Below, one piece after another: positions 2,841 through 57,900 of a stretch of DNA of 64,000 bases. Position numbers and translations under genes: made by a program. The first letter of the stretch is position 1; each line of letters opens with the position of its first letter. Where the stretch lies: the NCBI RefSeq assembly GCF_006345805.1, contig NC_043017.1, positions 9,982,001 through 10,046,000 on the forward strand, in the 5' to 3' direction. The notes below the pieces were generated by a model. That model saw only the letters and a list, made by a program, of their open reading frames with translations, did not search any database and was not told where the DNA came from. Source of the DNA: Octopus sinensis (Eukaryota).

Positions 2841-2900
2841 GAGTCTTATGGGGCGCCTATACAGCTAAGAGCTTTATAGGTGTGAAACCAATGGTCACTC
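2841..2900 (+). ncRNA. Degenerate type-I hammerhead ribozyme motif
   Basis: GAGT-CTTATGG (2 mismatches to CTGATGA)-g-GCGCCTATA...TATAGGTGT-GAAA-CCAATGG-TC-ACTC; stems I, II and III all pair. Confidence 0.55.
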
Positions 2901-3241
2901 TCTGACCAGCCATAACAACCTTCTAAGTATGTGTGTGTGTGTGTGTAAATTGTCAAGGTGCAACATAAAATGCCATGGTGTGGGTGATTGTGCTATGTAA
3001 AAAACTCTCAGTCCACTCTGTGGGATGGTTGGCAATATGAAGGGCATCCAGCCATAGAAACCGTGCCAAAGCAGACAGTGGAACCTGGTGTGGTCCCTGG
3101 CCTTGCTAGTTCCTATCAAGCCATCCTACCTGTGCCAGCATGGAAAATGGACATTAAATGTTGATGATGATGATGATGATGATAATACATACACACACAC
3201 ACATGAATGCATGTGAGTGCACGTGCACACACACGCACACA

Positions 3242-4103
3242 CAGGGTGTGATGGTTAAATTGTCGTCATTTTATATTTTTAATTTCGCATCTCCACATTG
3301 TTTTTGGTTCGTTGACTACACAGTACAGCAGGGTCAGTGGAGTACCGTCTGTGAGAAAAACAGCACCATGACGCAATTCACTCTGCTAGAAATTTGGAAA
3401 CGACATGCTATACTTCTGGGCATTCACGCCGGAAGCTCCAATACGAACATTTCAGAGTGTTTGCTTGTCAATCTGAGGACATGTATTGAGAGTGATAAAA
3501 ACCAAACATTCAGTCAGCATCATGGTGTTTGGAGTGATCATTAGTGATGGCGACGTTATGCATCTATTCATCTTCCCACACGGCCCCACACTCAACACAG
3601 AAGCCTACATCAAGTGCCTGGAGGAGGTAGTGCTGTCCTGGGTGAAGAGGGTGGCTGTTGGGTAGACCCTATGTCTAGCAACAGGACACTGTGCCATGCC
3701 ACACGAGCAGGAGAACCCAGTCATGACTGTCAGACAGTTTCTGAAACCACATCACCCCTAACATTGCGCCACCTAACTCCCCAGACTGCAACACCCTTGA
3801 TTATTATGTGTGTAGTGCAGTTGAGTGAGAGAACAACAAAACTCCTTGTAACACCATAGATGAATTGAAGGCAAAGATCATGGTAGCATTCACCGATTTA
3901 AACAAGGAGACCGTGCAGAAGAGTTGCAGGACATTCCAGAGCCGTCTGTGGTTGTAGCCAATGTTGATTTTATTGAATAAATTTACTCTTTAGTATTTCA
4001 AGATATTTTTATAGAATGTTGGTAAATACATCTGTTGAAATGAGATGTCAGTGTTATTTTCATTTTTGCATAATTTAAACGACAGTTTAGTCACAACACA
4101 CTG
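3242..4103 (+). mobile_element. Internally deleted Tc1/mariner-superfamily DD37D (maT-like) element
   Basis: Imperfect TIRs (CAGGGTGTGATGGTTAAATTGTCG / CGACAGTTTAGTCACAACACACTG-TA); N-terminal MTQFTLLEIWKRHAILLG joined to a decayed catalytic region QQD...PNSPDCNTLDYY with stops. Confidence 0.85.
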
Positions 4104-4147
4104 TATTATATATGTATATATATATATATATATATATATATATATAT

Positions 4148-53724: not shown

Positions 53725-54135
53725 GTCATCATCATCATCATCATCATCGTCGTTGTTTAATGCCTGCTTTCCATGCTGGCATGGGTTGGATGGTTTGACT
53801 GAGAACTGGCAAGCCTGGAGGCTGCACCACGCTTCAGTCTGATCTGGCAAGATTTCTACAGCTGGATGCTCTTCCTAACGTCAACCACTCCGAGAGAGTA
53901 GTGGGTGAATTTTATGTGCCACTGGCACAGGTGCCATTCTGGTGGCACTGGCATTGACCACGCTCAAATGGTGCATTTTATGTGCCACTGGCACAGGTGC
54001 CATTCTGGTGGCACTGGCATTGACCACGCTTAAATGGTGCATTTTATGTGCCACTGGCAATGCAATTGGTCATGCTCAAATGGTGCTTTTTACATCCTAC
54101 CAGCACGATTTCACCTGACTCAACAGGTCATCTCA
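53725..54135 (-). mobile_element. SINE family C with a duplicated internal unit
   Basis: (CAT)n tail, body, and a near-exact ~67-bp duplication at 53910-54045. Confidence 0.8.
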
Positions 54136-54856
54136 TAAACAGCATATTACCTGATGATTGATAATGATAATGATGACAATGAAGTTGATAGTAATGGTGA
54201 TGATGACGACAACAGTGATGATGATAATCAACATGGTGATGTTATAAATGATGATGATGATAATGATGATGATCATCATCATGACAACACCAATGATAGT
54301 GATGATGATGCTGATGATGGTAGTGGTGATGATGATGACGATGATGATGTTGGTGAGGATGATGAAGATGGCAATGATGGACTGCAAAGTGTCACGAAAA
54401 AGACATTTTTGAAATGGTTATCTTCTTGCTGCTACCCCTTTCCAGAAAGTATAAGGAAAAAGAAATAAAGAGAAAGAAGAAAGGGGAGTGAAAGAGAGAA
54501 AATGAAGAAGTGAACCATGAAGTGAAGAAAACACCCAGAAAAGTAAGAAAATGTAAGAAGAGGATGATTTTAGAAGCAAAAGAATATGTCTAGAGATGAC
54601 AGAAGAATTAATTAGAATATAATTCTGTAATTCCTCTCACCAAATAATGGTAACAATGGTGGAATATGCTAATAAAGCTCAAACTGCATTCATTTTCCAT
54701 TATATAGATATCCTCTGAGAAAACTTGTCATGTCTGTCTGTCTGTCTGTCTCTCTCTTCTTTCATACATTCAGTGTCACGCTGAATAATTTTATGAATAT
54801 GTATGTATGTATGTATATAAGAAAATTAGATGACAAAGGAATAAATGAACTCCATT

Positions 54857-54937
54857 AGCTTACAGCTGTTTCTGCTATAAGATGCAGTGGACTCATATCT
54901 GAGTGCCTGAGTAACTCCTTATAGCTTCATCAGAGCC
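54857..54937 (-). ncRNA. Type-I hammerhead motif with palindromic stem III
   Basis: GGCU-CUGAUGA-a-GCUAUAAG...CUUAUAGC-a-GAAA-CAGCUG-UA-AGCU; truncated inverted copy GCTCTGATGGAGCTATA at ~54952-54968. Confidence 0.7.
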
Positions 54938-57900
54938 TTGATTATAAAGCAGCTCTGATGGAGCTATACATACACACACACACACACATATTATTTTTTA
55001 TCTTTTACTTGTTTCAGTTATTGGACTGTGGCCATGCTGGGGCGCTGCCTTAAAGGGTTTTAATTGAACAAATCAACCTCAGTACTTATCCTTTTTTAAG
55101 TTTGCTGCTTATAAAAAACATTAAGTTACTGCAATGTAGATAAACCAACACTGATTGTCAAATGCTTGGGAGTGGGGACAAACACAAATGCAAAGACACA
55201 CACATACACAAAGGCTCCCACAAAGTTACCACCAACCAAATCCACAGAAGTCATTGCTTGGCCCAGGGTGTCGTACAGTGGCACTGAGCTTGAATACATG
55301 ATTGCAAAGCAAGCTTCTTAACAACACACCGACGTTTATTCTAGGAAACTCAAATGGAGAACCTTCGAAGCGCTTCACAGATCTTCACAGTGCTACTTAT
55401 TGACTGGATTTCGAGCCTGCAAGTCAGTTTGCTTTGTTTTTTTCTTGGAAATTCATAGCATTTTAAAGCTTATACTCAAATTTATCATTACATATCTCCA
55501 TGCATTTATGAGAATTACACATGAAAATCTATGGCCTGGATAAAAGAGTTGTTAATTTCTGAATTATTTTACCATAGATGTTTTCTATTCCACACAATTT
55601 TAGAAGAGGAATTCACACCCTTTGGGCAGCTGACATTTACAACTGTGCATAGCTTTTGTTCCTGTTGTGTTTGTACCTGGTTGCTGCTTTCATTGGAATG
55701 TGCCGCATGTATACTTTTAGTTTTAAAGACATGGAGTTTTTCTGATTTTGTGTACCTTTTCTGTGTAATGGTGAGGACAATCTTTCCTGCAGAAAACATT
55801 GTAAAATGCATTATCCTCAAAATAACGCTGTTTACAAGAATGCTGTCTGCTTCTTGTTAGCAGGAACACTGTTATGGCCTAAGGAAAGGCAATATTTTGC
55901 TACAACTTTTAGACAACAATTAAGGCCTATGCAACTTAATTTTTTTTGCGTTAGGAAGGGCATCCAGCTGTAGAAACACTGCCAGATCTGACTGGCCTGG
56001 TGCAGCCTTCGGGCTTCCCAGACCCCAGTTGAACCGTCCAACCCATGCTAGCATGGAAAGCGGACGTTAAACGATGATGATGATGATGTTGATGACATGG
56101 GTGATATTTTCAGCATGGAAGTTTGGAGGTATCTTTCTTTTTCTTGTTGATCAGAAATTTAGAAACCATTTTCTGTTCTTCAATAGTGAAGATGCATCCT
56201 TGGAGGAATGTGATGTATCTAATTATCACAAGTCCAGGTAATGCTACACTTCTTGTCAATGTTGTTGATATACTTTAGATTACAGTGAAGGCAATTGATC
56301 CAGTGTGAGTTTGCTCTCATAATCATAGGGTCATGGTTTCAATTCCCAGACTGGGCAGTGTGCTGTGTTTTTCACCTGGACACCATGCCAGTGATGCTCT
56401 TATATTACTTTCAAATTTTGGCACAATGCCAGCAATTTCAGAGGAAGAGTAAGGCAATTACATCAACCCCAATGCTTAACTGGTTCTTATTTTATTGACC
56501 CCAAAAGGATGAAAGGCAAAGTTGACCTTGGCAGAATTTGAACTCAGCACGCAAAGATGGACAAAATGCTGCTAACGGTATTTCGTCTGTCTCTGTGTTC
56601 TGAGTTTAAATTCGAGGCGACTTTACTTTTCATCCTTTTGGGGTTGATAAATTAAGTACCAGTTGCGTACTGGGGTCGATCTAATCAACTGACCCTCTCC
56701 CCCAAAATTTCGGGCCTTGTACCTAGAGTAGAAAAAGCTGGGGAACAGAGTATAACTGGGATATTGGGCCCCAGGGGAGGGGATGGTACCTTGTTCTTTG
56801 GTTGACTACATGTGTGCTATGAGACTGACTGCTGGACCAGAGCCAGATTAGGGGTTACTCAACAGCAACTGACCACTAAATTATGGAATGGGATGATAAA
56901 GTGCAGTTGTTTGGACTCTGTCAATTTGGGGCAGCTGACAAGATATTTGACCTGTTTTGGTGGGGGCGATACTTTTTGGCACTGGAGGCAAACAGACTCA
57001 CACGTGCATGTGCATGTAGAAATATGCATAGACAGACAGAAAGAGGAAGAGGGACGTTATATGATTTACTAATTGGATGTGATTGTCAAACACCTTACCT
57101 CTCTTTGTCCACATAAAAAGAAATATCCTCAAATAGTGAGAGAGGAGGGGTAGAGACAGAGAAAGGCATTACACAACTGAACAACTATTGACAAATACTG
57201 CCCCCTCTCCTCATACGCATAAAAAGAAATACGCTCATGCACCTATAGAAAGAAAGATGGAAAGACAGAGGAGAGAAAGAGAGAGAGAGAGAGAAATTAC
57301 AATTTATTAACTGAACATGATTGACAAATACTTTCTCCAGAATTGTTGCCAGGTTCTAAAGTCAGTGGGAGCAAGCACATAAAAAATGGTGTTGGGAGTG
57401 GGCATGACATGTACCAAGCAATTTTTAATTAATTTCTCTTATATTACTCAGAATGTTTCATTAATTATAATATATGCAATTGTATTCTATTTTTTTTATT
57501 CTTTTACCTGTTTCTGTCATTTGACTGTGGCCATGCTGGAGCACCACCTTAAAGAGTTTTTTTAGTCAAAGAAATCGACCCCAGGATTTATTCTATTGGT
57601 CTTAGTTGTCAAACGATGATGGGGGCAGGGGACAAACACACACACACACACATGCATTTCTTTCAGTTTCCATTTACTGAATCCACTTACAAGGCTTCAG
57701 TTGGCTCGTGGCTATAATAGAAGACATTTACCCAAGGTGCCACACAATGGGACTGAACCTGGAGCCATGTGGTTGGGAAGCAAGCTTCTTACTGCACGGC
57801 CACTCCTGCACCTATATCCATTAATTTAATATTTCAGTAACGATGTCATCATGCATCAAACTTACAACCAGGTAATTAAAAAAAATGAAAAAAAATAGTT

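Follow-up and report, generated by a model that had tools for sequence, protein, structure and literature searches.

Eight hammerhead ribozyme loci in a 64-kb window of the Octopus sinensis genome are very probably decaying 3' ends of Penelope-like elements

We analyzed a 64-kb stretch of the Octopus sinensis genome (contig NC_043017.1, positions 9,982,001 to 10,046,000; hereafter the window) and concluded that its eight hammerhead loci are very probably decaying 3' ends (pseudo-LTRs) of Penelope-like elements (PLEs) carrying a minimal type-I hammerhead, likely inserted in 5'-truncated form and often as head-to-head pairs. Five repeat families, A through E, take in all eight loci. The direct observations behind this reading are family membership, the linkage of families A and C to open reading frames (ORFs), the tandem arrangement of D and E units, the presence of inverted arms whose junctions vary, tails, and neutral decay; the insertion mechanism is modeled on two earlier studies (PMC11167929 and PMC3846280). 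The loci are an ordinary octopus example of a described class and not a new system, because the opposite-strand pattern has already been described for that class. The kind is catalogued in PMC4209133 and in Files S1 and S2 of PMC8557442, and the former, from 2014, attributed pairs of hammerheads lying 100-700 bp apart on opposite strands to truncated PLEs.

The original prediction had placed complete or partial type-I hammerheads at positions 2841, 11774, 21972, 27847, 32318, 33196, 36169 and 54857, and each was confirmed there. Family A comprises loci 32318 and 36169 (53 matches in the genome, with 40 of 76 candidates scored), family B 27847 and 54857 (1813 candidates), family C 2841 and 21972 (939), family D 11774 (363), and family E 33196 (103); these candidate totals are not copy numbers. 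The inverted-repeat structure that had been predicted was present at six of the loci and absent from 2841 and 11774. At the former, a single 5'-truncated family C arm on the plus strand (2691..2925; 3' UTR/pLTR of a putative Hydra-clade PLE) contains a hammerhead at 2841-2900 whose core is decayed at 2845-2851, with GAAA at 2884-2887 and a predicted cut after 2896. At the latter, a single minus-strand arm of the ~350-nt family D tandem unit (11607..11917) has C3 at 11814, G12 at 11793 and a predicted cut between 11780 and 11779; its stem III is a mutated form of an 8-nt palindrome found in most family D copies, with the first pair broken.

The remaining loci are two-armed. In family C, a minus-strand left arm with the optional tail (21926..22043) and a plus-strand right arm without it (22050..22135; GAAA at 22075) both begin within stem II, so the left arm lacks CUGAUGA. 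One family B locus pairs a minus-strand arm holding only GAAA, stem III, UA, stem I' and the 3' end (27825..27868) with a plus-strand arm in which CUGAUGA is duplicated (27900, 27911) and GAAA deleted (27905..28039). The other has a minus-strand main arm (54798..54950; C3 54933, G12 54872, predicted cut after 54861) with a long stem II closed by an A.A mismatch, and a plus-strand stub of the opposite arm (54950..54966) ended by a (CA)n tract. In family A, the arms at 32290..32384 (minus; core decayed at 32380, G12 at 32360) and 32383..32470 (plus; core decayed at 32390, G12 at 32410) meet in the 5' strand of stem I. The second family A locus consists of a minus-strand left arm (36135..36218; C3 36207, G12 36187, predicted cut after 36174) and a tailed plus-strand right arm (36231..36419; CUGAUGA at 36267, G12 mutated at 36287). 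The minus-strand main arm of the ~550-nt family E tandem unit (33066..33332; C3 33282, G12 33215), whose tail runs on leftwards, faces a short plus-strand arm (33349..33435) that holds the 3' end only, without a hammerhead.

The type-I hammerhead motifs at these loci are genuine. A strict descriptor with all stems passed two of the eight window loci (54933 and 36207, both minus strand), against means of 0.04 and 0.00 in two tests of 100 local dinucleotide shuffles, in line with the earlier claim that the motif is not due to chance. The core is kept and stem pairs are broken at 11814 in family D and at 33282 in family E (two inner stem-I pairs), and at four further loci the cores are mutated or deleted. 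Genome-wide, the pattern CTGATGA-N8-20-GAAACTTCGAAGTC gave 65 matches, and the reversed control none. The sequences formed from the commonest letter per column in families B through E have a complete type-I core (CUGANGA, GAAA, UH and three helices) with paired stems, as do the family A alignments, and every one of the five families has a palindromic or near-palindromic stem III; the predicted picture of several families of minimal type-I hammerheads with palindromic stem III is thus supported. A family D copy and a homolog found through its flanks (L083) differ by several two-sided stem changes, in this one sequence pair. Covariation inside family A, for its part, was not above shuffles (272/500 and 136/500), a counterpoint to reading the loci as element ends. 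An Rfam scan, proposed with the original prediction, returned no family at gathering score in any of 19 sources (the window and 18 loci). At E <= 10 the Rfam hammerhead models had no match on two small stretches, and for the window a search by E-value produced miRNA noise driven by microsatellites; the best 150 of 332 matches included no hammerhead. The degeneracy of most window copies and their being missed by Rfam models might suggest chance matches in low-complexity DNA, but the near-zero shuffled and reversed controls already refute this, the complete paired cores and two-sided changes also oppose it, and we give it practically no probability.

Upstream of the hammerhead, families A and C run into decayed RT/GIY-YIG ORFs, and judged from sequence both families represent the 3' ends of Hydra-clade PLEs that encode ORFs; the predicted tie to Penelope-like elements thereby held up. 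These links were drawn from broken fragments, for family A at two loci, and the Hydra-clade placement from motifs and likeness by eye. In family C, 7 of the 20 best protein matches had the hammerhead 221-271 nt beyond the point where a PLE endonuclease ends, as did 6 of 19 when the query was left out. The C-terminal piece matched 8 of 8 database RT-EN proteins (E 1e-8 to 1e-15), and Atlas neighbours bear GIY-YIG or HTH_animal (score 0.95-0.96; 26-45% of members). Among relatives, L240 has YRDD in frame with the thumb, and L240, L247 and L241 share a CxCX5C linker and CxxC/CxH around conserved E and N; several copies carry long N/S/T-rich inserts within the endonuclease. In family A, L204/L377 and L212 align over ~900 nt, from thumb-domain sequence through to the hammerhead; L212 retains the CxCX5C linker and IIY..YIG, and L377 opens with an inverted family A 3' arm. 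RWK and DKT motifs were seen only in database relatives, among P0001-P0008. No full-length intact ORF partner was recovered for A or C, and Pfam gave no RT or GIY-YIG match above cut-off for the Hydra-type proteins and fragments. As had been predicted, the window yielded no PLE ORF.

Other partners were considered. Neptune was dropped in favour of Hydra as the partner clade. The abundant Poseidon-type PLEs (775-781-aa ORFs) were rejected; fragments of their ORFs occurred only sporadically near family loci, with no consistent side or strand, and pairwise comparison with a Poseidon-type ORF was not significant. For families B, D and E, no consistently collinear ORF was found within 1.5 kb at the 25-55 loci sampled per family, which stands as a counterpoint to a PLE origin of these three. 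A long upstream stretch common to two B loci (L104 and L118) proved to be an unrelated repeat, and a PLE ORF beside a D copy (L338/L376) is read as a separate insertion, because a different hammerhead stands downstream of it.

We then turned to the structure of the insertions. The copies bear PLE hallmarks, namely 5' truncation, an inverted 5' copy and an optional tail. In sets picked by their 3' ends, an adjacent inverted arm was counted by hand in 13 of 29 copies of A, 23 of 29 of C and at 13 of 27 distinct loci of D; many copies are single arms. Median arm length was 153 nt in A and 139 nt in C. The fold-back junction and arm length vary from copy to copy, as expected if the fold-back is made at insertion. 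Copies have two alternative 3' ends, with or without a tail, and tails are mostly one-sided; among family C copies whose main arm was picked for its tail, the inverted arm was tailed too in 6 of 23. Of 9 two-ended D copies inspected by eye, 3 had target duplications of ~11-12 bp, and five others lay in (TA)n-type tracts. Of the features that would define a MITE (fixed termini, homogeneous length and a common internal junction), none was found: junctions were variable and the 3' ends two.

In family A, the interval -35..+14 around G12 contained 22 of 27 5' ends and the 90 nt that follow none, with the -35 border set after the data had been seen (a border of -26 gave a ratio of 3.7, p 0.0015) and two copies ending 3' of the cut site left out. 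The 13 adjacent inverted arms of this family start in or at the edge of the ribozyme. Each test on 3'-picked ends omitted the query copy, and three duplicate D loci were dropped. Hammerhead-picked sets also had 5' ends at the ribozyme in C (14/24, p 2e-7) and B (11/24, p 0.004), in sets that overlap the copies used for model training. A general rule of clustering at the ribozyme was rejected, as the 3'-picked sets had no such enrichment for C (rate ratio 0.4-1.1) or D (1.0). The similar median arm lengths of A and C suggest that short processivity alone may explain much of the clustering.

Only families D and E look non-autonomous. Both consist of ORF-less head-to-tail units with one hammerhead each, with a period of 329-361 nt at five D loci and 538-554 nt at two E loci. 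Metazoan non-LTR retrozymes are built alike (Cervera and de la Pena 2020, PMC7229834; Li et al. 2026, bioRxiv 10.64898/2026.07.22.740005), and it is possible, if still tentative, that D and E are active retrozymes, with tandem units cleaved into monomers that form circles and are returned to the genome by PLE proteins. This would be compatible with a PLE origin of the loci, for two of the five families. Family D is young (92-98% identity), 16 of its 21 core-spanning arms have an intact core, and two L152 copies were predicted to cofold as a dimeric hammerhead. However, the tandems seen were partial, and two complete hammerheads in direct order were found at none of 8 D loci checked; few 5' ends lie at the cut site (within 8 nt in 3 of 29 A and 1 of 29 C copies), and the E unit exceeds the 170-400 nt range of retrozyme circles (PMC7229834). 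Unlike retrozymes, D and E are seen as partial tandems with PLE-type tails and inversions.

The original prediction had envisaged dedicated non-autonomous fold-back families, and such MITE-like or mini-PLE elements could be amplified from palindromic masters. The 5'-end cluster of family A suggests a short master, many A copies have one recurrent palindromic centre in the 5' strand of stem I (in a sample biased by a palindromic query), and B, D and E are without ORF partners. A self-amplifying palindromic master would explain the common A centre equally well, a counterpoint to the PLE reading. Against such masters, junctions and arm lengths vary, tails are mostly one-sided, single-arm copies are many, and A and C continue into ORFs as PLE 3' ends; nor do arms have extra mutual identity (0.791 within the same insertion vs 0.787 between insertions), and we consider this explanation improbable. 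That last comparison, with no excess arm-to-arm identity, also bears on whether the host keeps dispersed ribozymes or hairpins to cut transcripts or make small RNAs. The density of intact cores would offer raw material for exaptation, and stable hairpins are predicted for fold-back RNAs, but in unbiased sets mismatch in the core equalled that in the flanks for D (0.079 vs 0.079) and was close to it for A (0.075 vs 0.080, GAAA and U only), and six of the eight window loci fail the descriptor. Single copies look dead, because cores decay as fast as flanks, and host use is very improbable.

In the mechanism that we propose for PLE 3' ends, the GIY-YIG/RT protein of an element would nick AT-rich DNA, and reverse transcription would begin downstream of the ribozyme, at either of two internal RNA sites, a choice that would give 3' ends with or without a tail. 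Uncleaved RNA would be copied, usually stopping after ~140-150 nt, and two cDNAs, or one folding back, would be joined head to head, probably via microhomology. Its position just inside the 3' end would explain why the hammerhead is included in the insertions. Tandem precursor RNAs of the source elements are likely cleaved by hammerhead dimers that form through the palindromic stem III; when 9 sequences were cofolded, 2 were predicted to adopt the full dimeric hammerhead as their lowest-energy structure. A fold-back pair cannot work as a cis dimer, since its two hammerheads occupy opposite strands and its read-through RNA should, by prediction, fold into one long hairpin. The hammerhead in fold-back copies is likely inactive.

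These features agree in large part with known systems. Hydra-clade PLEs also have a C-terminal GIY-YIG, the CxCX5C linker, a CxxC..E..N..CxH end, a hammerhead near the 3' end, (TA)n targets, an inverted 5' copy and a tail (Craig et al. 2021, PMC8557442). In the same source, Hydra-1_Obim from Octopus bimaculoides has the stem III of family C, and the L240 RT stretch is closely like it by eye; families A and C differ from it in stems I and II and in flanks. Tails here are ~55-100 nt vs 30-40 nt in Hydra-clade PLEs, and the N/S/T-rich endonuclease inserts of several present copies are a further difference. Metazoan PLE hammerheads (Cervera and de la Pena 2014, PMC4209133, a paper whose main text makes no mention of molluscs) likewise have a short stem I, a palindromic stem III and a base left unpaired after A9, and they form many families per genome and are mostly solo. 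Compared with these, stem II is very long in B, C and E, and a 1x1 mismatch closes it directly before GAAA in B (A.A) and D (C.A). Head-to-head Penelope insertions with palindromic junctions have been described in Adineta vaga (Arkhipova et al. 2013, PMC3846280), alongside which we compared the Anolis Poseidon element (Frangieh et al. 2024, PMC11167929). Unlike both of those cases, most insertions here are two 100-170-nt ends with no ORF between. Kilobase-long head-to-head PLE ORF pairs are present in the octopus genome (L093, L094) and speak for the PLE reading. The available text of PMC5753468 has nothing on palindromic PLE ends, and the words 'hammerhead' and 'ribozyme' are absent from the main text of PMC13282606 as available.

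A 600-kb sample contained 11 intact hammerheads, all of families other than A-E (shuffles 0.05), which corresponds to ~18 intact-core hammerheads per Mb and ~50,000 per genome (95% range 25,000-89,000). Loci of families A through E numbered 0, 1, 1, 1 and 1 in that sample, and the predicted rate of roughly one locus per 8 kb is atypical of them. The proposed adjacency to microsatellites did not exceed chance in the window: a dinucleotide microsatellite lay within 50 nt of 5 of the 8 loci vs 3.3 at random (p = 0.2).

We regard it as rather unlikely that the folded hammerhead sets the sites of RT stops and cDNA joining, as a structural roadblock with no cutting, in a genome whose ~50,000 intact hammerheads include young retrozyme-like units with an extra A before GAAA. 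If the family A junction pattern were general, it would bear on the origin of head-to-head PLE insertions and on the role of the PLE hammerhead. The present work provides a first density estimate of hammerheads for this octopus genome and adds five octopus families to a known class, whose short palindromes can readily be mistaken for MITEs or miRNA hairpins.

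Hammerhead parts were present on inspection at all eight sites of the original prediction, and searches of the genome (2.72 Gb, 13,516 contigs) resolved these loci into five dispersed families, in keeping with the several families proposed: A (32318, 36169), B (27847, 54857), C (2841, 21972), D (11774) and E (33196). Two loci in the window, 54933 (-) and 36207 (-), passed a strict type-I descriptor, compared with means of 0.04 and 0.00 in 100 local dinucleotide shuffles. Two others kept the core with stem pairs broken, and the remaining four of the eight were decayed or truncated. 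Taking the commonest letter in each alignment column, we recovered a complete core with paired stems for families B-E; the family-A core was taken from alignments instead, and its pattern had 65 matches in the genome versus 0 for the control. An Rfam scan of the window and 18 loci at the gathering threshold did not detect the family hammerheads. The predicted inverted-repeat units held for six of the eight loci, which have an inverted arm (a second element end on the opposite strand), and failed at 2841 and 11774, which have none. The window is rich in microsatellites, and the supposed adjacency of the loci to them was not above chance within it.

Sixty 10-kb stretches taken at round coordinates contained 11 strict hammerheads, versus 0.05 in 20 shuffles and 0 in reversed sequence, which extrapolates to approximately 50,000 per genome (25,000-89,000). 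Only 4 loci in these 600 kb belonged to families A-E, so the window overstates their density and the predicted one locus per 8 kb is not typical of them. The sample also contained at least eight more hammerhead families with palindromic stem III (L270, L275, L276, L278, L291, L293, L297, L300 and L306). At L275, two near-identical copies on the same strand, 497 nt apart, form a candidate tandem retrozyme. L293 has an extra A before GAAA, as do families B and D.

As predicted, no Penelope ORF was found within the 64 kb of the window. In long copies of family C elsewhere in the genome, the sequence upstream contains the end of a broken ORF. Used as a query, this end gave 150 scored matches among 10,592 genome candidates, and the motif of family C or one very similar to it lay 221-271 nt downstream in 7 of the best 20 ORF loci, one of the 20 being the query itself. 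Longer relatives contained YRDD, a thumb, a CxCX5C linker, a split GIY..YIG and CxxC..E..N..CxH, which PMC8557442 gives as marks of the Hydra clade of Penelope-like elements (PLEs). The thumb region matches eight database proteins, and the family-C piece matches 8/8 of them. The hammerhead listed for Hydra-1_Obim of Octopus bimaculoides, in the PMC8557442 supplement, has the stem III of family C, and a local RT fragment closely resembles Hydra-1_Obim by eye. For family A, the alignment of L204 with L212 spans the region between thumb sequence and hammerhead, and an inverted family-A 3' arm stands at the start of L377, which is longer. Hydra-type ORFs (L236-L246, L255, L376) often had long N/S/T-rich inserts, either separating the GIY half from the YIG half or within the linker; these recall the N-rich insertions that PMC3846280 describes in Penelope elements of Adineta. 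Six Poseidon-type PLEs (L081-L085, L087) were young, with open frames of 775-883 codons containing RVT_1 and GIY-YIG, and are possibly still active.

Among copies picked by 3' end only and with arms counted by hand, an adjacent inverted arm was found in 13/27 for family D, 13/29 for A and 23/29 for C, with junctions between arms varying from copy to copy in all three. The arms, 5'-truncated element ends, had median lengths of 153 nt in A and 139 nt in C. The tail, an optional 3' extension, was present on the inverted arm in 6/23 family-C copies, and on one side only at window locus 21972. By eye, 3 of 9 two-ended family-D copies had 11-12-bp target duplications. Head-to-head PLE ORF pairs of kilobase length occur in the same genome. 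The copies match the inverted-copy-plus-tail pattern of the PLEs in PMC8557442 and PMC3846280, and the opposite-strand hammerhead pairs of PMC4209133. At L391, L335, L329 and L341, the 5' end or inversion junction fell on the palindromic stem III itself; in the mostly open literature we found no paper on ribozyme-set junctions.

In family A, 22 of 27 5' ends lay within -35 to +14 of core position G12, whereas the adjoining 90 nt contained no 5' end, an excess with a rate ratio of 6.6 (p = 4.5e-5, the border having been chosen after the data were seen). Unbiased sets of families C and D showed no excess of 5' ends near the ribozyme, so a short master element or plain low processivity could explain the family-A cluster just as well as ends set by the ribozyme.

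By analogy with PMC11167929, the element protein here would nick AT-rich DNA on both strands, begin copying at two internal sites in the RNA and work mainly on RNA that has not been cleaved. Two observations fit this scheme: each family has two 3' ends, and 5' ends seldom coincide with the cut site (3/29 in A, 1/29 in C). Palindromic stem III would permit a hammerhead dimer; cofolding predicted a full dimeric hammerhead in 2/9 natural sequences. Fold-back copies have two motifs on opposite strands, and their read-through RNA is predicted to form one hairpin.

The copies are decaying neutrally: in unbiased copy sets, mismatches were as frequent in cores as in flanks; lower core rates in B, C and E arose because those sets were picked by hammerhead. 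Arms within one insertion were no more alike than arms across insertions. Within-family covariation in family A was not above that of shuffles, and a single pair of sequences, family D and its homolog in L083, differed by several two-sided stem changes.

Head-to-tail repeats were found in family D (period 329-361 nt in 5/8 loci checked; tail approximately 57 nt) and family E (538-554 nt in 2/10). No ORF partner for B, D or E was found within 1.5 kb of sampled copies (25-55 loci per family). Families B and D retain a 1x1 mismatch just ahead of GAAA. For the axolotl, PMC7229834 describes a U.U mismatch at the stem II base.

A single clear host gene was found across the window, a frame at 41529-42512 (-) that is uninterrupted for 328 codons and matches a rhodopsin-family GPCR (PF00001, E = 9e-32). 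A near-perfect inverted repeat at 16285-21395 (arms of approximately 2.2 kb, 99-100% identity, 778-nt spacer), composed of common repeats and microsatellites, reflects either inverted duplication in the very recent past or an artefact of the assembly. An inverted pair at 3369-3917 and 7468-8016 (549 nt, 91%) may resemble Tc1/mariner transposase fragments, and a 118-codon frame at 30447-30800 (+), with no Pfam match, resembles a mariner transposase C-terminus. The window also contains a 25-bp array of 50 copies (48857-50114) and tandem duplications of period 497 (26119-27126), 184 (33750-34119) and 101 (62755-63483).

We found no paper on families A-E in the mostly open literature; the supplements of PMC4209133, PMC13282606 and bioRxiv 10.64898/2026.07.22.740005 may list them. 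The kind of element is already published, an octopus member included, and the motifs of the window are real and ordinary within this known class.
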